Shown piece after piece: positions 3,407 to 50,360 of a DNA stretch of 64,000 bases. This stretch comes from Candidatus Moranbacteria bacterium GW2011_GWC2_40_12 (GTDB taxonomy: Bacteria > Patescibacteriota > Minisyncoccia > Moranbacterales > UBA11712): contig LBYD01000002.1 of NCBI GenBank assembly GCA_000995965.1, forward strand, positions 199,889 through 263,888, written 5' to 3'. Position numbers and translations under genes: made by a program. Numbering within the stretch: position 1 is the stretch's first letter; each line of letters starts with the position of its first letter. The notes under the pieces are model-generated. The model worked only from the letters and a program-made list of their open reading frames with translations, ran no database searches and had not been told where the DNA came from.

Positions 3407-4585
3407 CTATTTTTCCGACATATAGTCCAGGATTGCCCGAATGGAATCCTTGGAAGTGGAAAAAATGAAGTAACTGTTTTCCTTGCTGGAAAGGACCGTG
3501 TAGTCCAGGGAGGTATTGGCGGGGCTCGGAAAATTATAATATCGGATATCGGCATTCAAATATTTGCTGGAGTTGAAGTTTATCTGGGTGTCAGCTGGCA
3601 GCCTGTCAAGATAGAAAGAGTTCAAAATCGAGAAAAGGTCCCCCTCCTCGCTTTTCAGAGACTCAGCCAAATTTTCCGATTGCGCCAGTTTGAAAGCGGC
3701 ACCCAGTCGCGGCTCGCCGTTTTCATTAGAAACAAACAGGCTGTAGTCGCCTGTCAATTTTTCAGAAACGCTTGCCGGGAAAACGAAATCAAAAAATCCG
3801 GAAAAAACCTGGGGAGTGACCGGCTGGTCATCCTTTGAAACTAATTTCACCTCTGTTGCTTTTCCCTGAGAAACCGATCCGGCGAGGCTCTTTGCATATC
3901 TTTCGATGGCCAACTTATTGGCGATTTTGTCAGCTTCCAAGTCAAGAGCCCATTGTTTCAGATTGTTTTGGGCGGTATTTGTTGCTGATGCAGATGTTTT
4001 TTCGCTTTGGGAAGTTGTCGCGGGAGCTGTTGGTGCGGCCAATGGGCTGTCTGTTGCGGCGGATCTCATGAAAAACCACCAATAGCAAGCTCCGCCTCCT
4101 AAAATAACAAGGATTAGTAAGGATGAAAGGATTATACCAAGCTTGCTTGAAGATTTCGCAGGTGATTTTGCGGATTCTTTTTTCGGAACTCCCGCTTTTT
4201 CATCGAACGGCGAACGGGTTTGAAAAAAAGTATCTGAACCGAACGGATTGGGCATATCGCTTTTTTTTTCGCTCCTCGCCGCTGTTTCGGCCGATTCTTC
4301 CTTCTTCGCAGGGTTAGAATTGGGAAGAGGAACCATTTTTTCAGGTACCGGCGATTGGACCTCAAATTGCGGCCGGCCGGCCGGTTGGATTTCATCGGAA
4401 TGTGCCGGCATCGTCGGTTGGGAAAGCGGCTCCATTGGTGATTCTTTTTTCGCTGATTTTAGGTTCGCAAGGTCATCCTTGAGAGTGCGGATTTTGCCGT
4501 AGTTGTTCGGAAGAACTGTGCTTGTGAGATTGGCCGGGTTAGTCTCATTTAGGGGATGTTTCATTTGGAACATTTGTTTTTGCAA
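3407..4585 (-). CDS. hypothetical single-pass membrane protein with Pro/Ser-rich disordered N-terminus
   Basis: 392-aa ORF; one TM helix (LGIILSSLLILVILGGGACYWWFF); no recognisable catalytic motif. Confidence 0.6.
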   Translation of the reverse strand: MQKQMFQMKHPLNETNPANLTSTVLPNNYGKIRTLKDDLANLKSAKKESPMEPLSQPTMPAHSDEIQPAGRPQFEVQSPVPEKMVPLPNSNPAKKEESAETAARSEKKSDMPNPFGSDTFFQTRSPFDEKAGVPKKESAKSPAKSSSKLGIILSSLLILVILGGGACYWWFFMRSAATDSPLAAPTAPATTSQSEKTSASATNTAQNNLKQWALDLEADKIANKLAIERYAKSLAGSVSQGKATEVKLVSKDDQPVTPQVFSGFFDFVFPASVSEKLTGDYSLFVSNENGEPRLGAAFKLAQSENLAESLKSEEGDLFSILNSFYLDRLPADTQINFNSSKYLNADIRYYNFPSPANTSLDYTVLSSKENSYFIFSTSKDSIRAILDYMSEK

Positions 4586-10453: not shown

Positions 10454-11227
10454 ATGGAAAGCCTGGTAAGAATTCCGCAGTCTGAGCTTAACGCAACACT
10501 GGAAAGGCTTAGCAAACTTGGTGTCACGCAAGAGCATTTCAAGCGTGTCCGCTCAAGCAGAAAATATGCTAAAGCCGTGGCGTCGGCATTTCTCGGCGAT
10601 GATGGTGTGGTGATGAGTTATAATGATGTTCGCACCATTCTCGGTCAGGATTTCATCACGCCCGAGGAAATCGCCATTGCTCGCAAGCTCACCTATGGCG
10701 ACGATGTGCTTCAGTATTTCACTGAAACGCTTCCGTCCGAGGAAGTGTTGCAGTGGCTCCGTGACAACGGCTTCGTGCTGATTGCGGGACCGCCCAGTCC
10801 GATGTCGCTCTTGGAAGTCCGCGACCTCAACGCCCAGCTCCTTTACACCAAGTCTGGCGGTTGGTATGCGGAAGCGAAGCAGAAATTCTCACGGGACGAT
10901 AAGGTGGTTTCTGAATGGCTTATGCTCCGCAAGGGCGTCGTGCCCAAATCCACGAGCAAAACGTGGGACGAACAGCAGAAGCTTCTTTCCGAGGCGGAAT
11001 GCGTTCCCAACGCTCCCGAAACGACGTGGGGCGAAACCACTTACAAGGAAGTCCGTAATGCGTGGCTGTTTCCCAGCATCTACGCCAGAACTTCTTCCGT
11101 GGACTCAGACGACAATCGCGTCTGCGTCGGCGATTCGGCGGGTGGCGGTGTCTACGTCGGCAGCGGCTGGGGCGACGACCGCCACGACGGCCTTGGTCTG
11201 GCGTCCGCTCAGAAACGAAACTCGTAA
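10454..11227 (+). CDS. DGR target protein (variable protein) with C-terminal variable region
   Basis: 257-aa ORF with a good RBS (aaaggaggt); the last ~40 codons (11095-11215) are a near-copy of the downstream TR with adenine-specific differences; GC (~52%) is higher than the surrounding genome; no signal peptide seen. Confidence 0.8.
   Translation: MESLVRIPQSELNATLERLSKLGVTQEHFKRVRSSRKYAKAVASAFLGDDGVVMSYNDVRTILGQDFITPEEIAIARKLTYGDDVLQYFTETLPSEEVLQWLRDNGFVLIAGPPSPMSLLEVRDLNAQLLYTKSGGWYAEAKQKFSRDDKVVSEWLMLRKGVVPKSTSKTWDEQQKLLSEAECVPNAPETTWGETTYKEVRNAWLFPSIYARTSSVDSDDNRVCVGDSAGGGVYVGSGWGDDRHDGLGLASAQKRNS
11095..11215 (+). other. DGR variable region (VR) inside the target gene
   Basis: 121-bp alignment to TR 11587-11707; 15 mismatches fall at TR adenines (to G, T or C), 1 T-to-G, 1 terminal G/A; the 3' 20 bp ccttggtctggcgtccgctc are identical (IMH-like). 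Confidence 0.85.
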
Positions 11228-11586
11228 CCTTGAAATCTTGTTCCTTTTGTATTCTTGAGCCTTCGGCGATTTTTTTTCTCGCTGGAGGCTCTTTTCTTTT
11301 GTCAAAAACACTGATAAGATAAAATCAATCTTGCTAATGCAAGTTAGGTTACGGCTTAACTTCGCGAGATGTCTTTTCTTTAGACCTTACCAGAATATCG
11401 TCGGCTACGGCTTGCGATAGCGTGCGAGCAAAGATGAGAGTTAATTTCTTGTTTGCTCTTAGTGGAGGTGTTCTGATTTTGTCATCGGAACTGCTCTCGA
11501 ATAAAATACAGGAAAGAGAGAATATAGTCCGCTTTTAGCGGAAGTAAATCTCAATTTCCAGTGGCTTTCAGACGGGAACAAACAAA

Positions 11587-11707
11587 TTCCGTGGACTCAG
11601 ACGACAATCACGTCAACGTCGGCAATTCGGCGAGTGGCGGTGTCAACGTCAACAACAACTGGGACGACAACCGCAACGACTACCTTGGTCTGGCGTCCGC
11701 TCGGAAA
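11587..11707 (+). other. DGR template region (TR), non-coding template repeat
   Basis: Direct repeat of VR, rich in AAC codons in the VR frame (NHVNVGNSASGGVNVNNNWDDNRND); lies between the target gene and avd, upstream of the RT. Confidence 0.85.
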
Positions 11708-11723
11708 TTATCTCAAGTCGAAA

Positions 11724-11756
11724 GTAAACGCTCTCCTTTTTTGGGAGAGCGTTTAC
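11724..11756. terminator. perfect hairpin (gtaaacgctctcc-tttttt-ggagagcgtttac) immediately 3' of avd on the minus strand and 3' of TR on the plus strand
   Basis: 13-bp stem with a 6-nt T/A loop, read directly from the sequence. Confidence 0.6.
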
Positions 11757-11757
11757 T

Positions 11758-12108
11758 TTAGCAGTCCTTTACGGATTTTATCCAGCCGCCGAGCATTCTT
11801 CCTATTTCATCCGTTTTTTCCTGAAGCAGGACATACTTTTTGCTGTCAATCGCTTTCACTTCTTTGGCAAGGCGGACAAAAATTCTGAAAAGGTTCAACT
11901 TCAAGCTGGCTTTTTCAAGGACTGGCAATTTTTCCACTTTGGACATTTGGCTGGCCAGCAGGATACTTTCCAGTGTTTCCAGCAAAATGTTTTCGCATTT
12001 CTGCCAGAGCGTATAGCGGTCTTGTTTGGGGACTGAATTTCTGAAGCTATAAAAGTTCCGATACAACTCGTAGATTTTTTTAAAGATCGGTATGTCAAAT
12101 TCTTCCAT
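11758..12108 (-). CDS. avd: Avd-like accessory variability determinant (four-helix-bundle protein)
   Basis: 117 aa from MEEFDIPIFKKIYELYRNFYSF...; basic helical protein of the 23S-rRNA-intervening-sequence/four-helix-bundle family that includes DGR Avd; adjacent to the DGR RT. Confidence 0.7.
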   Translation of the reverse strand: MEEFDIPIFKKIYELYRNFYSFRNSVPKQDRYTLWQKCENILLETLESILLASQMSKVEKLPVLEKASLKLNLFRIFVRLAKEVKAIDSKKYVLLQEKTDEIGRMLGGWIKSVKDC

Positions 12109-12120
12109 AGGTTTATTGTT

Positions 12121-13170
12121 ATGAAGATTTATAAAGATGTTTTTGAGAAAATAATTTCGCCTGAAAATCTTTTTTCGGCTTGGGACAATTTCAAAGTCGG
12201 AAAGATAAAAAAGAAAGATGTCCAGGCGTTTGAATCGAAGCTGGAACAAAACATTTTCCAGCTTCATCGGGAATTGAGGGGACGCTCGTATAGGCACGGC
12301 AGTTATGCCTCATTTTATATACGTGATCCGAAACAAAGACATATTCACAAAGCCGAAGTCAGAGACAGAATTTTGCATCATGCCGTTTTTTCTATCCTCA
12401 ACCCCATTTTTGAGGCAACCTTTATTTCCCATTCTTTTTCTTGCCGAATTGGAAAGGGAACGCATAAAGGCGTTATCGCTTTGGAAAAAATGATAAGAAA
12501 AGAGACGCAAAATTATTCCAGACGTTGCTTTATTTTGAAGTGCGACGTGAGGAAGTTTTTTGATACGGTTGACCACGGAATTTTGATGAGGATTTTGAAA
12601 AAGCGGATTAAGGACGAAAATGCACTCTGTCTGTTAAGAGAAATTATTAGCAGTTTTTCCTCCGAGCATTCGGACATTTTCACAGTCCGAGGTTTGCCGA
12701 TTGGCAATCTCACCTCCCAGCTTTTTGCCAATATCTTCCTCAACGAGCTTGACCAGTTTGTCAAAAACAAAATGCGTTTGAAATTCTATGCTCGCTATAC
12801 CGATGATTTCGTCATTGTCGGGAAAGACGAAAGAGAATTGAAAAATATGCTTTCGGAAATACGCTCATTCTTGAAAGATAGATTGTCCCTGGAACTCCAC
12901 CCGAAAAAAATCGTGATTAGAAAATATAGCCAAGGAATTGATTATCTTGGCTATATCGTTTTGCCTCACTATCAGCTACTCCGAACAAAAACGAAAAAGC
13001 GAGTGTTCAAAAAGTTGAAAATGCGGATTGGGCAATACAGGGCGGGGGAAATTAGCGAAAAATCTTTGAACCAATCCCTGCAATCCTATCTCGGCGTTTT
13101 TTCCCACGCCGACACGCACGAATTGGAGCAGGAACTTCTTAATCAATTTTGGTTTTGGTTGAATGAATAA
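12121..13170 (+). CDS. diversity-generating retroelement reverse transcriptase
   Basis: 349 aa; RT motifs including KCDVRKFFDTVDH and YARYTDDFVIVG (YxDD); DGR-hallmark motif LPIGNLTSQ ([I/L]GxxxSQ) replaces the group II intron QGxxxSP. Confidence 0.85.
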   Translation: MKIYKDVFEKIISPENLFSAWDNFKVGKIKKKDVQAFESKLEQNIFQLHRELRGRSYRHGSYASFYIRDPKQRHIHKAEVRDRILHHAVFSILNPIFEATFISHSFSCRIGKGTHKGVIALEKMIRKETQNYSRRCFILKCDVRKFFDTVDHGILMRILKKRIKDENALCLLREIISSFSSEHSDIFTVRGLPIGNLTSQLFANIFLNELDQFVKNKMRLKFYARYTDDFVIVGKDERELKNMLSEIRSFLKDRLSLELHPKKIVIRKYSQGIDYLGYIVLPHYQLLRTKTKKRVFKKLKMRIGQYRAGEISEKSLNQSLQSYLGVFSHADTHELEQELLNQFWFWLNE

Positions 13171-17992: not shown

Positions 17993-18183
17993 AATCGTTG
18001 GGTTGAAATGAAAGACGGAATATTGGCTTCTTGGATTATAATATATCAAAAATTATCATTGACGCAACCCAATTATTACATTACGCTTTATATGAGAATT
18101 TAATTCCTCAGGAAAGGGGTCGAAAACAGGATTTTTTCCGGGTCGAAATTATTCAAGCCGGAGGTTTGAAAGAGCGTAACGAC

Positions 18184-33931: not shown

Positions 33932-34072
33932 CCACAGCGCAGGCAATGCTTGTTTTTAAATTTCTCTGCGCGAAACTTTTCGCTCCGCGCTTTTTTATGG
34001 CTTGATTATATAATGAGCAGGAGTTATTATAATAAATGCTTCTGGAATGGCAGATTCACCCCGCACCATTTT

Positions 34073-34154
34073 GGGTGAGTGGCGAAATTGGCATACGCAC
34101 TAGCCTTAGGAGCTAGCGGGGCGACCCATGGAGGTTCGAGTCCTCTCTCACCCA
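34073..34154 (+). tRNA. tRNA-Leu (anticodon TAG), class II with long variable arm
   Basis: acceptor gggtgag/ctcaccc, 3-bp D-stem, anticodon arm ctagc-ctTAGga-gctag, variable arm gggg-cga-ccc, T-arm ggagg-ttcgagt-cctct. Confidence 0.8.
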
Positions 34155-34214
34155 AAAAATTAGATCAAAAAATGGTGCGGGGCACACCAGCCCCCGCACT
34201 AAATTGCTCCGCAA

Positions 34215-34272
34215 TTAGTGCGGGGTAAACTTAGGAGCTAGCGCCGCAAGGCATGAGGGTTCAACTCCCTCC
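34215..34272 (+). pseudogene. tRNA-Leu 3'-half-like element (anticodon loop to acceptor 3' strand); no cognate 5' half found
   Basis: cttaggagctag + gcc-gcaa-ggc variable arm + gaggg-ttcaact-ccctc T-arm + cctgccca; compensatory changes relative to tRNA-Leu(TAG); preceded by gtgcgggg. Confidence 0.4.
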
Positions 34273-34364
34273 CTGCCCACAAGATATTTCAAATGGAGGT
34301 TTTTACCCCGACTTTACGTCGGGGCAAGTCCCTGCCTGCCGGCAGGCAGGCTCTCCCCGGCACA

Positions 34365-35858: not shown

Positions 35859-35874
35859 GCCGGGCTAGCTCAGT
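35859..35874 (+). pseudogene. 16-nt duplicate of the tRNA-Phe 5' end (gccgggctagctcagt) followed by a cccgcc motif, 88 nt upstream of the real tRNA-Phe start
   Basis: Exact direct repeat of 35947-35962. Confidence 0.6.
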
Positions 35875-35946
35875 CCCGCCAGAGGCGGATAAAGTCCGAG
35901 CAGAGGACTTGAGGTTAGCGTCGGAATTAACAATCGAATAATTTTT

Positions 35947-36314
35947 GCCGGGCTAGCTCAGTGGTAGAGCAGAAGACTGATTTTCGGTCCATTCCGCAGC
36001 GATGCGGAAAAGAAAAATCGGGTGAATTCGAGGAAACCTAATCTCCGACGTTATGTTGGAGCAGGGCAATCTCGAGCCAATCCTTCGCCGGGAGGCTACG
36101 GATTGCAAGCAAGCTAATTTTAGAAGGCTTGCCTGCCGTAGCTTTAGCGGAGGCAGGTGTAGAGACTAGCAGGTGAGTTCCAACAATAATCCTGCGCCAG
36201 CGCCCGACCGCTCCCTTCGCGAAGGGAGGGGATGAAATAGTCCGATCCTTGGGGAAACTCAAGCAAACGACGAGGAAAATCTTTGTGTGCCCAGTTCGAT
36301 TCTGGGGCCCGGCA
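35947..36314 (+). tRNA. tRNA-Phe (anticodon GAA) interrupted by a group I intron between positions 33 and 34
   Basis: Exon 1 is 35947-35978 (acceptor gccgggc, D-arm tagctcagtggtagagca ~ E. coli tRNA-Phe, anticodon stem gaaga, ct). Exon 2 is 36275-36314 (gaaaa-tcttt, variable gtgtg, T-arm cccag-ttcgatt-ctggg, acceptor gcccggc, a). The spliced loop is ctGAAaa. Confidence 0.75.
35979..36274 (+). ncRNA. group I self-splicing intron (~296 nt, no ORF) in the tRNA-Phe anticodon loop
   Basis: P1 with U.G at the 5' splice site (exon gacu / intron gguc); P7 halves gAGACUAg (36163-36169) and auAGUCC (36237-36243); terminal G before exon 2. Confidence 0.7.
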
Positions 36315-36388
36315 CAAACAATTTATAAACTACGCCAAAGCGGGATTGCCCGCCGAAGCCTGCCTGCCAGCAGGCAGGCGTAGCGCAG

Positions 36389-46009: not shown

Positions 46010-46360
46010 TTTAGTGTCTTTGATAATTATTAAAAAATGTATTTTTAGGCATAACAATACCCCGCTTCTTCCATGGGTCAAGAAATATATCCTATTCGGT
46101 TGTTTTTTTACCCCTCACCAATTCCAACCAGCTTCTTTATTTATTCACAGCAGATAGCGGTGCGACTGCCTTCTTTCCGCGTGAATTAAGTAAAAATGTA
46201 TTCAGAATTAGTGAGAAGTGAATTTTGACCCGAGACTGCGGGGTGGTTTTGTAATTTCATTATAACAGTTCAAAATAAATACGCAAACCCATTAAATAAT
46301 CTAAACATTTTGCAGGTTTTTGTCTTTGCAATTTTCGTGCTGGAGCTAATCATAAAATAA

Positions 46361-48040: not shown

Positions 48041-48343
48041 ATGACAGATCAAAGAAAATTCCAACGTCGAATCGAGAACTTTGTTTGCGAGAACTGCGGA
48101 GCGGAAGTGAAAGGCAATGGTTTCACAGACCATTGCCCCGTTTGCCTTTGGGGGCGCCACGTGGATGTGAATCCGGGTGATCGCGCGTCGAGTTGCCGCG
48201 GTATGATGAGACCGATAAGGGTAGAAGCAAAAAGCGGAAAATATCTGCTCTATTATAAATGTAAGGAATGTAGGCATAAGTTTCGAGTAAGATCAGCACC
48301 AAATGATGAATTCGATTTGATTATTAAATTGATTAACAAATAA
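48041..48343 (+). CDS. RNHCP-domain zinc-ribbon protein
   Basis: 100 aa; CENCG...FTDHCPVCLWGRH...CRGMM...YKCKECRHKF. Confidence 0.7.
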   Translation: MTDQRKFQRRIENFVCENCGAEVKGNGFTDHCPVCLWGRHVDVNPGDRASSCRGMMRPIRVEAKSGKYLLYYKCKECRHKFRVRSAPNDEFDLIIKLINK

Positions 48344-48348
48344 TATTT

Positions 48349-48389
48349 GCCCCCGTAGTTCAATGACAAGGGACTCCTAAGCCCTAGAT
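48349..48389 (+). pseudogene. truncated 5' two-thirds copy of tRNA-Arg(CCT) (acceptor 5' through variable region) followed by ccatgcccgcccg
   Basis: gcccccgtagttcaatgacaagggactcctaagccctagat matches the intact tRNA at 48415 over the D and anticodon arms but lacks a T-arm and acceptor 3' strand. Confidence 0.55.
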
Positions 48390-48414
48390 CCATGCCCGCC
48401 CGTTCACTTTTTTA

Positions 48415-48486
48415 CTCCTCATAGTTCAATGGATAGAACAAGGGACTCCTAAGCCCTAGATGCAGGTCCGATTCCTGCTGAGGAGA
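48415..48486 (+). tRNA. tRNA-Arg (anticodon CCT), C1:G72
   Basis: acceptor ctcctca/tgaggag, anticodon arm aggga-ctCCTaa-gccct (31:39 A.G mismatch), T-arm gcagg-tccgatt-cctgc. Confidence 0.65.
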
Positions 48487-48544
48487 CAAAAAGTGTTCGG
48501 GTGAAACTCATGACGGGGACACATAAAATTTTTAAATTATAATT

Positions 48545-49796: not shown

Positions 49797-50360
49797 TTGG
49801 CGATAAAAATGGATCAGCTGACACTTCTAAAAAAAATCACAAAAACATTAGGCGATCTTGAGGTTCCATATCTCGTCACTGGAGGGGTGGCGGTGACTGT
49901 CTGGGGCCGGCCGCGCTTCACGGCGGATATTGATATTGTCATCGAAATATCCTTGCCGCAATCAAAAAATCTGATCAAGGTTCTGCGAAAGATTAATAAG
50001 AAAATTTATCTTAGCGAAACGGCAGTCAACCAAGCCATTCATAACAGCGGGGAATTCAATCTCATTCATCCGGATGGATTGAAAGTTGATTTTTGGATTT
50101 TAGAGAACGATATTTTTGATCGATCTCGCTTAAAAAGAAAGATAACAAAAAAAGTCTGGGGGGAAAATATCTCATTTATCTCTCCAGAAGATCTAATTAT
50201 TTCTAAACTTGATTGGTATAAAAAAAGCCGTTCCACGCGGCATTTGGAAGATGTCGAATCTGTCATAGCAATCCAAAAAAAAATGGACTGGAGATATATC
50301 AGAAAATGGGTGAGGATCCAATCAACGGAAAAATACTTGAAACTGATTTTGAAAAAATAA
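49797..50360 (+). CDS. putative minimal nucleotidyltransferase (MNT-fold) protein
   Basis: 187 aa; TGGVAVTVWGRPRFTADIDIVIE matches hG[GS]...D.D of the Pol-beta-like NTase fold; overlapped by a 64-aa upstream ORF (49667-49861). Confidence 0.55.
   Translation: MAIKMDQLTLLKKITKTLGDLEVPYLVTGGVAVTVWGRPRFTADIDIVIEISLPQSKNLIKVLRKINKKIYLSETAVNQAIHNSGEFNLIHPDGLKVDFWILENDIFDRSRLKRKITKKVWGENISFISPEDLIISKLDWYKKSRSTRHLEDVESVIAIQKKMDWRYIRKWVRIQSTEKYLKLILKK

Follow-up and report, generated by a model that had tools for sequence, protein, structure and literature searches.

Truncated tRNA copies in a Candidatus Moranbacteria genome: probable leftovers of resident tRNA genes split by miniature palindromic cassettes with a replacement tRNA

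The window, i.e., the whole 64-kb stretch of DNA analysed here, derives from Candidatus Moranbacteria, an ultra-small bacterium of the CPR, and carries 12 tRNA genes. Partial copies of the 5' part of a tRNA lie upstream of the intact Phe, Arg, and Pro genes, just where the preliminary description had placed them, and CCCGCC directly follows the Phe, the Arg, and the first Pro piece (Table 1). The related sequence CCCGCACC stands 5' of tRNA-Leu(TAG) (34060), tRNA-Pro (54934), and tRNA-Ser (57932), again as described. The Phe copy comprises 16 nt at 35859-35874, which match the tRNA-Phe at 35947 with a blastn-short E value of 0.001 in 64 kb and have an orthologue in a related locus (L088), but it does not end there: past a 19-nt hairpin it resumes at 35894-35912, reading GTCC GAGC A GAGGA CT. 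The Arg copy starts at 48349 as reported, with a 5' piece of 46 nt (48349-48394), and the two Pro units, correctly placed at 54852 and 54899, span 54852-54881 and 54899-54928. Matching 3' remnants downstream of the intact Pro, Arg, and Leu genes had been overlooked.

Table 1. Features of the tRNA loci in the window; remnants, cassettes, and generations are named according to the reading preferred in the text, and L numbers are handles of related loci
Feature	Position	Strand	Support
Older tRNA-Leu(TAG), 5' remnant, D-loop region, decayed	34042..34054	+	CTGGAATGGCAGA against GGTGGAACGGCAGA of the L086/L090 allele; weak
Leu cassette TTCA-CCCCGCACC-ATTTT, tRNA-Leu(TAG) 34072-34155, ..AAAAT-GGTGCGGGG	34055..34182	+	perfect ~14-bp inverted repeat; fold z=-5.2
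Hairpin-only element CCCCGCAC..GTGCGGGG-TAAA adjoining old Leu anticodon loop	34192..34229	+	fold -15.5 kcal/mol, z=-6.2
Older tRNA-Leu(TAG), 3' remnant, anticodon loop to 3' end	34230..34279	+	94% over 51 nt against L090 stand-alone tRNA-Leu(TAG)
Older tRNA-Phe, 5' remnant, nt 1-16, GCCGGGCTAGCTCAGT	35859..35874	+	16/16 against tRNA-Phe at 35947 and against L084 Phe
Hairpin-only element CCCGCC-AGA-GGCGG-A-TAAA in old Phe D loop (motif of the preliminary description)	35875..35893	+	5-bp hairpin fold, z=-2.9
Old Phe gene continued: D-stem 3' strand, anticodon-stem 5' strand GAGGA, loop start	35894..35912	+	GAGC-A-GAGGA-CT as in the L085/L086 Phe allele
A/T-rich spacer 5' of new tRNA-Phe	35913..35946	+	direct sequence reading
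Current tRNA-Phe(GAA) with group I intron ~35980-36275	35947..36315	+	ARAGORN, introns allowed; Rfam RF00028, 57 bits, 35969-36264
Nested GC-rich hairpins directly upstream of tRNA-Gly, CCCGCC GAAGC[CTGCCTGCCAGCAGGCAG]GCGTAG..GGCGGG	36340..36388	+	same hairpin family as L071 T-loop insert
Older tRNA-Arg(CCT), 5' remnant, nt 1-53, 8-nt D-arm deletion	48349..48394	+	matches intact L006/L011/L030 gene
Arg cassette, left arm and spacer CCCG-CCCGTTCAC-TTTTTTA	48395..48414	+	pairs with 48488-48505; fold z=-5.4
Current cassette-borne tRNA-Arg(CCT)	48415..48487	+	ARAGORN, Rfam
Arg cassette, spacer and right arm AAAAA-GTGTTCGGG-TGAA	48488..48505	+	pairs with left arm
Older tRNA-Arg, 3' remnant: T-loop ACT, T-stem, acceptor CGGGGAC-A	48506..48521	+	intact relatives: CCATG-TTCG-ACTCATGGCGGGGGCA
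Pro generation 1: ancestral resident tRNA-Pro(CGG), 5' remnant, nt 1-30	54852..54881	+	30/30 against intact L001/L002/L004/L005 tRNA-Pro
First Pro cassette, degenerate left arm and spacer CCCG-CCCTG-TTAAATAT	54882..54898	+	same place: L009 CCCG-CCCCTCACC-AATTTAC; L007 TTCACCCCG-TTAAATAT
Pro generation 2: second tRNA-Pro(CGG) allele, 5' half and CGCG (L007: TTCG)	54899..54932	+	65/71 against L024 stand-alone gene
Pro generation 3 cassette CCCCGCACC-AAAAATAT, tRNA-Pro(CGG) 54949-55021, AAGCGGTATTTT-GGTGCTAGGG-TGAA	54933..55046	+	arms pair, fold z=-2.7
Generation-2 tRNA-Pro, 3' half GGT-TCGTG..TGTCCCG-A-CCA	55047..55086	+	94% against L024 over 36 nt; acceptor strand complements CGGGACA at 54899
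Older tRNA-Ser, 5' fragment, acceptor to D loop, GGAGAGGTGCCAGAGTGG	56839..56857	+	17/18 against L001 tRNA-Ser(CGA)
Double-motif LAGLIDADG homing-endonuclease ORF in Ser insert	56892..57887	+	Pfam PF14528, 8e-13; motifs LGIFVGDGH, LRGLFDTDG
CCCGCACC arm and A/T-rich spacer upstream of tRNA-Ser(CGA) 57966-58055	57932..57965	+	sequence motif

The motif is enriched within 100 nt upstream of tRNA genes, in line with the pattern first noticed: 7 of the 20 plus-strand CCCGC[AC]C/CCCGCC sites of the window lie in this distance of one of its 12 tRNAs (0.38 expected, P=5e-8), and in 24 related loci 7 of 93 sites lie as near to a tRNA (1.3 expected, P=3e-4). It is missing at six of the 12 (Met, both Val, Leu(GAG), and both Ala). 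The motif does not stand by itself as a box but forms one arm of an inverted repeat rich in GC. The left arm reads CCCGCC or CCCCGCACC. The right arm, GGCGG(G) or GGTGCGGGG, follows either a few bases on, in elements that consist of the hairpin only, or beyond the new tRNA, and its tail is TRAA (or CAAG) in most copies. Inverted repeats of 9-14 bp bound the Leu, Pro, and Arg cassettes as well as an Ala cassette in L009. The arms pair across the new tRNA and the fold is a cloverleaf on a long stalk (z -2.7 to -5.4), as is also seen at Leu. A right end (G)GGGT[GA]AA recurs at Pro and Arg of the window and in L002 (Ser), L007 (Pro), and L015 (Arg). Hairpin-only elements with the same arms are 19-40 nt long and occur, in both orientations, throughout the loops (D, anticodon, and T) of dead remnants; a 13-15-mer of the Phe hairpin is also present in the D loops of dead tRNA-Ala, tRNA-Arg, tRNA-Ser, and tRNA-Val remnants (L002, L006, L007, L038, L071, L085, L088). 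In the regular-expression scan for CCC...GGG-TRAA, many matches with 5-bp arms were noise, and we kept arms of >=7 bp or sites at tRNA remnants. Rfam, searched over the whole window at E<=10, returned no family for hairpins, cassettes, or partial tRNAs. Similar arms also surround an intergenic non-tRNA core of ~80-100 nt that is conserved in several genomes (window 46109-46222, L008, L012). Two other identities of these sequences were rejected. CCCCGCACCA resembles the 3' end of a tRNA-like minihelix (acceptor strand, discriminator, CCA), but no 5' strand lies upstream and its partner lies downstream of the new tRNA. Judged by eye, the hairpins are not terminators, as an A-rich and not a T-rich run follows on the tRNA strand and T runs precede on the other strand.

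Three generations of tRNA-Pro(CGG) are stacked in the Pro locus. The first departs from its intact relatives exactly where CCCGCC starts, at the end of the 5' strand of the anticodon stem. The 5' half of the second, joined via TTCG to 55047-55083, is called as tRNA-Pro(CGG) by ARAGORN, and the inner tRNA of the third agrees at 65/71 positions with a stand-alone gene in L014/L020. Each of the three exists elsewhere as a plain, arm-less, stand-alone gene at the orthologous locus, the first in L001, the second in L024, and the third in L014/L020. The outer Pro tRNA is not called as an intron-containing gene by ARAGORN, which with introns of up to 1.4 kb allowed reports only the Phe intron. An ORF with an RNHCP domain upstream of the Arg remnant was considered as a nuclease and dismissed; no match supports this function, and the ORF is widely conserved there in relatives. 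The current tRNA-Phe escaped default ARAGORN because a group I intron lies in its anticodon loop. The group I intron model RF00028 matches only within this gene (35969-36264), and none of the cassettes matches it even at E<=10.

The Ser locus is the only one of the five at which an endonuclease ORF adjoins the replacement gene; none does at Phe, Arg, Pro, or Leu. Its LAGLIDADG ORF matches endonuclease domains of inteins, and neither a partner arm nor a 3' remnant was found downstream of tRNA-Ser. ORFs with an N-terminal HTH and an 'LYWGEGD' motif occupy tRNA spacers in L017, L035, L085, and L086. We examined these as potential LAGLIDADG enzymes and retain them as no more than a lead, as they gave no significant match to the LAGLIDADG ORF of the window, Pfam, PDB sequences, or NCBIfam except for the HTH.

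The older genes are found whole in relatives, at the same loci, which provides pairs of empty and filled sites. tRNA-Ala(CGC) is intact in the window, whereas the copy in L009 is split into pieces of 32 and 36 nt, both 100% identical, by an insert of 114 nt that holds a whole new tRNA-Ala(CGC) and replaces 4 nt, CGCA. tRNA-Arg is intact in L006/L011/L030 and split in the window and in L019; L008-L010 show a different, independent interruption of the same gene. The tRNA-Pro of which the first window unit repeats 30 of 30 nt is intact in L001/L002/L005. Inserts measured by such comparisons are 114-165 nt long. The cassette always has the orientation of the old gene, and its tRNA has the same anticodon as the old gene and is an allele that resides ordinarily at the same locus in other Moranbacteria lineages. 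Two types of tRNA-Ala(GGC) have exchanged these roles: the GGGCCGT type, intact in the window, is a remnant in L006/L007/L071, where the GGGGATA type provides the inner gene; in L038, the GGGGATA type is itself the remnant. As a counter-example to the link between arms and remnants, the Ala(CGC) allele of the window has arms and no recognisable remnant in L020. Across ~40 related contigs (about 1.2 Mb), an intact tRNA of the same anticodon lies <=300 nt from 31 of the 36 distinct remnants, in all 31 cases on the same strand; among the five exceptions, one is at a contig end, one is >300 nt away, and three are chance-level matches. The 3' remnants stand just past the right arm and their acceptor strands complement the 5' remnants. 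The 5' and 3' remnants are complementary halves without overlap, with a whole functional tRNA inside the insert. Such nested structures recur in independent NCBI, JGI, and ENA assemblies.

The preliminary description had suggested an element or a replacement process that strikes at varying points inside tRNA genes and delivers a substitute tRNA, and the empty/filled comparisons support this. We consider it probable that the truncated pieces are leftover halves of older resident tRNA genes, which were split by miniature palindromic cassettes with a replacement tRNA. The observation is well above chance level, and about half of the tRNA genes in this 64-kb stretch of a minimal genome appear to have been overwritten in place. 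In this reading, a small cassette inserts into the resident gene and splits it into halves; it consists of a complete tRNA with the anticodon of that gene, bordered by short A/T runs and by the GC-rich inverted repeat. A promoter would not fit into the cassette, which invariably runs in the direction of the old gene, so that the new tRNA would presumably be transcribed from the promoter of the old gene and released by RNase P and 3' processing. An essential single-copy gene could tolerate the entry of the cassette without death of the cell because the insert brings its own substitute. Repeated invasions would then yield nested loci such as the three-generation Pro locus.

In the best-resolved cases the insertion lies in or adjoins a TTCG that belongs either to the T loop or, in tRNAs with a CGN anticodon, to the anticodon loop, and D-loop hairpins follow AGT(T). 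The 5' flanks of the elements include TTCG, GTCG, CTCG, GTAG, ATAG, and TTAG, but also CAGT, AGTT, and TGGA; left breakpoints vary between nt 10 and nt 57. The junctions are not uniform, with TTCG retained in L007, changed to CGCG or CCCG in the window, and 4 nt lost in L009, and in L008 the old gene is interrupted after nt 27 by an inner tRNA that has no arms of its own, and continues with nt 28. No target-site duplication was found at any resolved junction; the junctions are either exact or short of up to 4 nt. Such variation is as compatible with break repair or illegitimate recombination as it is with transposition. The comparisons show the insertions as such, with their orientation and ends, the agreement in anticodon and strand, and the repeated occurrence in different genomes. 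The hairpin-armed units are inferred to be mobile elements themselves, of a type similar to REP, MITE, or IS200-IS605, moved in trans by some enzyme, and would have spread between lineages via DNA transfer. The cassettes are too small to encode a mobilising enzyme, and no transposase, recombinase, or other candidate was found among the ORFs scanned in the 64-kb window and in ~20-kb pieces of relatives. We saw no tRNA-bearing cassette at a non-tRNA site or on a virus. The right end TTGGTGCGGGGTRAA occurs on 45 viral contigs, which is the chance level, in no case with a CCCCGCACC partner within 220 nt, and the D-loop hairpin CCGCCARRGGCGGATAAAGT had no viral match. Why different tRNAs share the same arms is left unexplained by the cassette reading. 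A phage origin of the window itself was rejected, as blastn against phages gave only tRNA-sized matches and the encoded proteins are cellular (L19, Ddl, GyrA, FtsH).

The LAGLIDADG ORF at the Ser locus makes replacement driven by a homing endonuclease the chief rival to the mobile-cassette reading, albeit an unlikely one. A LAGLIDADG-type or other endonuclease would cut the resident allele, repair would import the endonuclease gene together with a linked, resistant tRNA, and later decay of the endonuclease would leave remnant, spacer, and new tRNA, with the GC hairpins as a separate, secondary coloniser of dead DNA. The ORF occupies precisely the interval that separates the tRNA-Ser 5' fragment from the new tRNA-Ser, which agrees with this sequence of events, but the Pro, Arg, Leu, and Phe inserts of the window hold neither an ORF nor a remnant of one. 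Likewise, the 'LYWGEGD' ORFs with their HTH are suggestively placed in tRNA spacers of relatives, yet they match nothing in Pfam, NCBIfam, or PDB beyond the HTH. LAGLIDADG enzymes produce 4-nt overhangs, and the stretch swapped by the L009 insert, CGCA, is exactly 4 nt long, while the Arg and Pro remnants of the window have an altered TTCG; homing does not, however, predict that inserts measure 114-165 nt and end in conserved inverted repeats at either junction. The serial replacement by diverged alleles resembles an arms race, and the SegB endonuclease of phage T4 is a precedent for the promoted inheritance of a tRNA region (PMC2330249), although homing would normally be expected to convert seamlessly and not to leave nested halves.

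A leader or promoter module was the alternative that the preliminary description had held to be equally possible. That the motif and the A/T run form a lineage-specific leader, promoter, or processing stem, with the partial copies as unrelated debris, is very improbable and already largely refuted. The pairing of leader and trailer does extend right to the acceptor stem, and the similar arms around the conserved intergenic non-tRNA core could be read in the same way. However, half of the tRNAs in the window lack the motif, and stand-alone orthologues of the same alleles lack it as well (L014, L020, L024, L001). The motif begins exactly at the breakpoint of the old gene, and the same hairpins occur without a tRNA within dead remnants. 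The arms decay, with the partner arm mutated to GGTGCTAGGG in the window and the right arm missing in L009. The motif is also too near for a promoter, its distance to the tRNA 5' end being only 4-8 nt at Leu, Arg, and Pro and 26 nt at Ser, and the spacer is too short for one in the arm-flanked Leu, Arg, and Pro cassettes.

We give hardly any credence to the view that the inserts are intervening sequences at the RNA level, comparable to archaeal bulge-helix-bulge introns or split tRNAs, such that the outer tRNA is functional after excision and the inner one is freed from the intron. Complementary GC-rich sequences do adjoin both exon-like halves, as in archaeal split and intron-containing tRNAs, and the second-generation Pro halves rejoin as a valid tRNA-Pro(CGG) with TTCG restored. 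This, however, is the only case in which outer halves can be rebuilt into a complete tRNA, and only by restoring TTCG, which reads CGCG or CCCG. The outer genes are damaged, as Arg of the window lacks 8 nt of the D arm and the outer Ala(CGC) of L009 lacks the anticodon (CGCA); the first Pro generation and Phe lack a 3' half. The junctions lie in or next to a continuous helix and not at a pair of 3-nt bulges with 4 bp in between. The inserts match none of the intron families in Rfam, and next to the inner tRNA a second, outer one would be superfluous. Similarly far-fetched is an origin by local tandem duplication, by replication slippage, or by template switching followed by decay, without imported DNA or a mobile element: in L032, partial tRNA-Lys units with hairpins do form a genuine tandem array, and at Phe and in L038 the remnant repeats the start of the neighbouring gene without a difference, but the general layout is nested (5' half, whole gene, 3' half) and not tandem, identical hairpin sequences occur at different tRNAs and in different genomes, and inner and outer alleles differ at 16-20 of 71 nt while outer remnants are up to 100% identical to functional genes of relatives. 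These identities argue against a derivation of the inner genes from their own outer remnants.

The cassettes that we favour as the cause of the split genes share single traits with several known systems. Elements with a tyrosine integrase (phages, genomic islands, archaeal SSV-type) target the anticodon-loop/T-loop region of tRNA genes, leave partial copies, and keep the tRNA working, and successive events result in several remnants; Williams reportedly described the sublocation of such integration sites in tRNA genes in 2002. The window inserts resemble them in the targeted anticodon and T loops, the partial copies, and the preserved working tRNA. Integrative elements, however, span kilobases, encode an integrase, and restore only the 3' part of the gene via a direct repeat (attL/attR), whereas the window inserts comprise about 0.1-0.2 kb without an ORF, supply a whole tRNA, and have non-overlapping 5' and 3' halves immediately around them. 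No integrase gene is present in the Pro, Arg, and Leu inserts of the window or in the 114-165-nt inserts of L008/L009, which consist of the tRNA and short flanks only; the LAGLIDADG ORF at Ser is the sole ORF in any insert. A direct repeat of the tRNA 3' segment at both insert ends was not found.

Insertion of the IS200/IS605 type involves a single strand and occurs next to a tetranucleotide, of which the window hairpins are reminiscent through the lack of a target duplication and the 4-nt TRAA tail. MITEs, which depend on a DDE transposase, have terminal inverted repeats in common with the cassettes but differ from these by their target-site duplication. REPINs are tiny, GC-rich, non-autonomous palindromes with a short conserved end tag that are often nested (PMC3116915), and palindromes tagged with GTAG/CGTC have also been described (PMC3733652). 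The window hairpins are like REP/REPIN elements, IS200/IS605-derived palindromes, and very small cyanobacterial hairpin repeats in being tiny and GC-rich and in having an end tag and nesting. Elements of the REP/REPIN type are, however, extragenic and free of cargo, while the window hairpins lie in loops of tRNA genes and some enclose a complete tRNA gene.

The Ser insert with its LAGLIDADG ORF is comparable to SegB of phage T4, the gene of which lies among tRNA genes and promotes the inheritance of the linked tRNA region (PMC2330249). SegB acts by seamless co-conversion between phage genomes, in contrast to the nested tRNA halves and mostly ORF-less inserts of the window. In archaea, the D, anticodon, and T regions are broken up by tRNA introns at non-canonical positions, by split tRNAs, and by 'transposing' tRNA introns; their flanks are rich in GC and complementary, and there is evidence that they have moved between tRNA genes (PMC10714607, PMC4390854). 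They are removed from the RNA at a bulge-helix-bulge motif and leave a functional host tRNA, whereas the window inserts have no such motif, defective outer genes, and another tRNA inside. Within the same group of organisms, insertions in rRNA genes of CPR bacteria invade structural RNA genes at the tips of stem-loops, and some encode LAGLIDADG enzymes (PMC11270868). These are introns or are excised and bring no replacement gene, unlike the tRNA-carrying inserts of the window, and the survey that describes them nowhere mentions tRNA (PMC11270868).

We tentatively propose, as a possibility to which we assign somewhat less than an even chance, that the inserts belong to a new class of miniature palindromic elements in CPR bacteria (Parcubacteria). 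Such elements would home into the single-stranded loops of tRNA genes and prefer the TTCG that nearly all T loops contain and anticodon loops that resemble it, and some would carry a complete tRNA as 'antidote' cargo. This would permit the invasion of essential single-copy genes, the use of host promoters, serial allele replacement between lineages, and the build-up of nested 'Russian-doll' tRNA loci. In the literature that we searched, we found no description of nested or disrupted tRNA genes in CPR/Patescibacteria and none of a self-compensating invasion of essential tRNA genes by inserts that bear a substitute.

By common view, no part of a genome is more stable than its tRNA genes, and large integrating elements use them as passive landing sites. 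If driven by an element, the process would amount to an addiction-like strategy for invading essential genes and would open a route for the horizontal turnover of tRNA alleles among CPR bacteria. Gene finders overlook or mis-call nested tRNA loci, the remnants could pass for tRNA pseudogenes or att sites, and imported alleles may confound phylogenetic or codon-usage inference based on tRNAs in CPR genomes. The conserved arms CCCCGCAC...GTGCGGGG-TRAA offer a handle for tracking down the enzyme that recognises them. Arms of the CCCCGCAC type are also present in a Harrisonbacteria genome (L098), where tRNA-Ile has the same architecture.

The partial tRNA copies in the window are very probably remnants of resident tRNA genes that were split by inserted replacement cassettes. 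Every copy listed in the preliminary description is present where it had been placed, and the CCCGCC-type motif following such copies is tied to tRNAs as proposed: 7 of 20 + strand sites in the window lie within 100 nt upstream of a tRNA (0.38 expected, P=5e-8), as do 7 of 93 sites in 24 related loci (1.3 expected upstream of tRNAs, P=3e-4). Partial copies that had been overlooked also lie 3' of the intact Pro, Arg, and Leu genes (Table). The acceptor strand of the Pro 3' half is complementary to the start of Pro unit 2. At Leu, Pro, and Arg, the complement of the upstream motif is found between the intact gene and the downstream remnant, which gives the paired arms CCCCGCACCATTTT...AAAATGGTGCGGGG (Leu, perfect over ~14 bp), CCCCGCACCAAAAATA...TATTTTGGTGCTAGGG (Pro), and CCCGTTCAC...GTGTTCGGG (Arg). 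Upon folding, the tRNA cloverleaf sits atop a long stalk of arm, A/T run, and acceptor stem (z=-2.7 for Pro, -5.2 for Leu, and -5.4 for Arg). From the downstream remnants, the paired arms, and these folds it follows that the loci are ordered as old 5' half, arm, whole new tRNA, arm, and old 3' half, i.e., an inner gene nested within an outer, older one.

Table. Positions of remnants, arms, and neighboring features (window coordinates unless a locus of a related genome or metagenome, L001 to L098, is named)
Feature	Position	Remark
Phe 5' piece, 16 nt	35859-35874	CCCGCC directly after
Phe hairpin CCCGCC-AGA-GGCGG-A-TAAA	35875-35893	D loop of old Phe gene
Old Phe gene continuation GTCC-GAGC-A-GAGGA-CT	35894-35912	anticodon stem of L085/L086 allele
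Arg 5' piece, 46 nt	48349-48394	CCCGCC directly after
Arg 3' remnant	48506-48521	downstream of tRNA-Arg; ACT-CATGA-CGGGGAC-A; completes upstream piece
Pro unit 1	54852-54881	CCCGCC directly after
Pro unit 2	54899-54928	starts CGGGACA
Pro 3' half	55047-55086	downstream of tRNA-Pro; GGT-TCGTG-TAGA-CTGGGTTCGATTCCCAG-TGTCCCG-A-CCA
Leu 3' remnant	34230-34279	downstream of tRNA-Leu(TAG); different tRNA-Leu(TAG) allele, anticodon loop to end
CCCGCACC	upstream of tRNA-Leu(TAG), tRNA-Pro, tRNA-Ser	
Inverted repeat CCCCGCACC...GGCGCGGGG, ~45-nt loop	3027-3089	650-nt intergenic region with further palindromes; sole CCCGCACC copy in window not adjoining a tRNA
T-loop hairpin	34302-34324	TT^CA position
Nested hairpins	34295-34350, 36340-36388	in loops of other hairpins
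Second palindrome family CCTGCCTGCC-NGC-GGCAGGCAGG	34328-34350, 36355-36378	in or beside loops of CCCGCC-type hairpins
Orphan tRNA 3' remnant	34295-34364	T arm and acceptor strand CCCCGGC-A; two hairpin insertions
Element TTTA-CCCCTCACCAATTC...GAATTGGTGCGGGG-TGAA	46109-46222; L008 ~4100-4235; L012 5511-5624	intergenic, between TPR and Wzy genes; right arm decayed in window
LAGLIDADG ORF, double-motif	56892-57887	between tRNA-Ser 5' fragment and new tRNA-Ser
HTH/'LYWGEGD/S' ORFs	L017 1539-2159; L035 537-1160; L085 and L086	between tRNA-Phe and tRNA-Gly (L085, L086)
tRNA-Phe(GAA)	35947-36315	detected with introns allowed
Group I intron	~35980-36275	anticodon loop of tRNA-Phe(GAA); Rfam RF00028, 57 bits
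~80-nt module GGAAAGGGGTCGGGAAAACGGGAGTTTTCCCG...AACGAC	18107-18183; L088 11431-11511; L086 5374-5451; L005 15235-15301	
Diversity-generating retroelement (DGR)	10454-13170	
DGR variable repeat	11095-11215	3' end of ORF 10454-11227
DGR template repeat	11587-11707	15/17 mismatches at template adenines
DGR reverse transcriptase ORF	12121-13170	RVT_1, 5.5e-27
RNHCP-domain zinc-ribbon ORF	48041-48343	between tRNA-Ala(GGC) and tRNA-Arg remnant

Syntenic loci from ~40 related metagenome and genome contigs provide the comparison of orthologous sites that the preliminary description had called for. Plain tRNA-Pro(CGG) genes in L001, L002, and L005 share their first 30 nt with Pro unit 1, which parts from them at the very point where the anticodon-stem 5' strand ends and CCCGCC starts. 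Likewise, the outer-type tRNA-Arg(CCT) is uninterrupted in L006, L011, and L030 (...CCATG-TTCG-ACTCATGGCGGGGGCA), split in the T loop in the window and L019, and split elsewhere by an independent event in L008-L010. The cleanest pair runs in the reverse direction, as the window's intact tRNA-Ala(CGC) is divided in L009 into a 32-nt and a 36-nt half, each 100% identical to the window sequence, with a 114-nt insert in place of the four bases CGCA. This insert reads TTCA-CCCCAGCACC, spacer, a different tRNA-Ala(CGC), spacer, and GGTGCGGGG-CAAG. These empty and filled sites show the inner gene plus arms to be the insertion and the partial copies to be the leftovers of the resident gene.

Junctions of the best-resolved tRNA-bearing inserts lie at TTCG, either in the T loop or, in a CGN-anticodon tRNA, in the anticodon loop. 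L007 retains ...GCGCGA-TTCG|CCCCGCACC...GGTACGGGG-TAAA|GGT-TCGTG, and the window reads CGCG (Pro) or CCCG (Arg) in place of TTCG. Behind the G-rich arm there is usually TAAA, TGAA, or CAAG, and no target duplication was seen at the insertion sites. Arms also occur alone, as 19-40-nt hairpins without tRNA, in either orientation in the loops of dead remnants. At Phe, the 16-nt piece of the preliminary description holds, but its supposed motif is such a hairpin, behind which the old gene resumes. In other genomes, near-identical hairpins occupy the D loops of dead Ala, Arg, Ser, and Val genes. Others are found in T loops between TT and CG (L005, L007, L086, L089), with one at the equivalent position in the window. 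Hairpins are also nested in one another. The orphan remnant with two such hairpins abuts the true pseudouridine synthase start (ATGCTCAAAATT, ~34365), is conserved in L084, L086, and L089, and contains within its region the mechanically listed ORF start at 34293. The same-armed element of ~115-150 nt that is shared with L008 and L012 has a conserved non-tRNA core of ~80-100 nt.

Small armed cassettes with a whole tRNA are shown to have entered resident tRNA genes of matching anticodon, repeatedly, independently, and in the resident gene's own orientation, and insertion of arm-family hairpins into the remnants is shown as well. In the arm-flanked cassettes (Leu, Arg, Pro), only 4-8 nt separate the arm from the mature 5' end, into which a promoter does not fit, and cassette and old gene are co-oriented without exception. 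Both observations suggest that transcription of the new tRNA presumably starts at the old promoter and runs through the 5' remnant; RNase P and 3' processing would then free the tRNA. The cell would survive insertion into a tRNA gene that is essential and probably single-copy only if the insert brings the same anticodon, and such selection would explain the same-anticodon rule. The hairpin-armed units are most likely miniature mobile elements that are non-autonomous and resemble REP/REPIN, MITE, or IS200/IS605-derived palindromes; they would be mobilized in trans, with the tRNA-bearing units as putative cargo-carrying members. No transposase or recombinase was found among the ORFs scanned in the window. 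The nested halves and the empty and filled sites in relatives support the original suggestion of an element or replacement process that strikes tRNA genes and supplies a substitute. We regard the overall explanation, mobile elements included, as probable, and a dedicated, self-compensating mobile element family as a tentative proposal that is nearly as apt to be right as wrong.

The strongest rival, homing-endonuclease-driven replacement as the prime mover, is unlikely, even though a LAGLIDADG ORF follows the 19-nt tRNA-Ser 5' fragment (its first 18 nt 17/18 identical to L001 tRNA-Ser), the L009 junction swaps exactly 4 nt, TTCG is changed in the window's Arg and Pro remnants, and HTH-containing ORFs of no assigned family occur in the tRNA spacers of relatives. 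Most inserts lack an ORF, however, and their conserved inverted-repeat ends are contrary to what homing predicts. The HTH-containing ORFs between tRNA genes (~205-220 aa) combine an N-terminal helix-turn-helix with an 'LYWGEGD/S' motif, match nothing in Pfam, NCBIfam, or PDB outside the HTH, and may represent a divergent homing-endonuclease family.

The reading of the inserts as RNA-level introns fails, as the outer genes are defective (anticodon missing, D-arm deletion, 3' halves missing) and the bulge-helix-bulge motif is absent. The leader or promoter module that the preliminary description had offered as an alternative fails on three counts: the motif is missing from stand-alone orthologues of the same alleles, the arms decay, and the start of the motif coincides exactly with the breakpoint.

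All three successive tRNA-Pro(CGG) alleles (generations 1-3) are ordinary stand-alone genes without arms at the orthologous locus in other lineages: generation 1 in L001/L002/L005, generation 2 in L024 (65/71 identical to the window halves rejoined via TTCG, which ARAGORN calls as tRNA-Pro(CGG)), and generation 3 in L014/L020 (65/71 identical). The inner alleles differ from the outer ones at 16-20 of 71 positions, while functional genes of relatives match the outer remnants at up to 100% identity, which argues that the inner genes are imports from diverged lineages, not local duplicates. Roles are even swapped for tRNA-Ala(GGC), of which one type, the working gene in the window, is a remnant in L006/L007/L071, while the other works in L006/L007/L071 but is a remnant in L038. 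Local duplication of tRNA genes fails on the nested order and the allele identities.

Searching masked loci with all intact tRNAs revealed 36 distinct remnants, 31 of them within 300 nt of an intact same-anticodon tRNA and all 31 on its strand; the five exceptions comprise one at a contig end, one more distant copy, and three chance-level matches. Among the genes hit are Ser(CGA), Ala(CGC), Ala(GGC), Pro(CGG), Arg(CCT), Leu(TAG), Phe, and Val. In the Harrisonbacteria genome L098, tRNA-Ile is enclosed by arms in the same way (CCCCGCAC...GTACGGGG), and related partial-copy structures occur at tRNA-Lys in two further CPR contigs. The structures recur in independent assemblies of different projects, which argues against an assembly artefact. 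In another CPR contig (L032, 8243-8690), tRNA-Lys(CTT) is followed by a tandem, not nested, array of units, each combining GTTAG with two or three hairpins and tRNA sequence that starts at nt 11.

The affinity of these inserts is with tRNA-targeting mobile DNA and miniature palindromic elements, and each of the nearest known systems resembles them only in part. Integrase-borne elements target the same tRNA-gene loops and preserve tRNA function; unlike the inserts described here, they are large, encode an integrase, and restore only the 3' end, via a direct repeat. Tiny palindromes such as REP/REPIN are like our hairpins in size, tag, and nesting but are extragenic and carry no cargo (PMC3116915, PMC3733652). 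The phage T4 endonuclease SegB can drive inheritance of a tRNA region, yet through conversion that is seamless, unlike the nested loci (PMC2330249). Archaeal mobile tRNA introns and split tRNAs are alike in positions and GC-rich complementary flanks but are spliced (PMC10714607, PMC4390854). A survey of rRNA-gene insertions in CPR bacteria makes no mention of tRNAs (PMC11270868). The full-text literature searched describes no CPR bacteria in which tRNA genes are nested or serially replaced, but the limited coverage of that library leaves absence unproven.

The window (43.8% G+C) has ordinary cellular protein content, including L19, an RluA-type pseudouridine synthase, the CCA-adding enzyme, GyrA, FtsH, PNPase, UvrD, and a D-Ala-D-Ala ligase that is 100% identical to a protein of Candidatus Moranbacteria bacterium GW2011_GWC1_45_18 (CPR/Parcubacteria). 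Directly downstream of the ligase gene, ORF 49797-50360, missing at that position in L001, weakly matches AbiEii/DUF6036-type nucleotidyltransferases (toxin-antitoxin-like). ARAGORN and Rfam identified 11 tRNAs, all on the + strand, and tRNA-Phe(GAA) is the twelfth. Its group I intron, also present in L086 and L088 and absent from L084 and L085, is polymorphic among Moranbacteria. The tRNA-Val(CAC) between tRNA-Ala(CGC) and tRNA-Ser(CGA) in L001, L002, and L007 is absent from the window, L005, and L009 (compared: window 56828-57965 and L001 14235-14917). A conserved ~80-nt module without Rfam match sits 1-4 nt 5' of three different tRNAs, those for Met, Val(TAC), and Phe, in three genomes and could be another mobile leader or small RNA. 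The window also encodes a diversity-generating retroelement. The tRNA-Ala(GGC) and tRNA-Arg genes, between which the window has the RNHCP-domain ORF, are adjacent (12-18 nt apart) in L001, L002, L007, and L014, and in many other relatives this ORF co-occurs with the outer-type tRNA-Arg.
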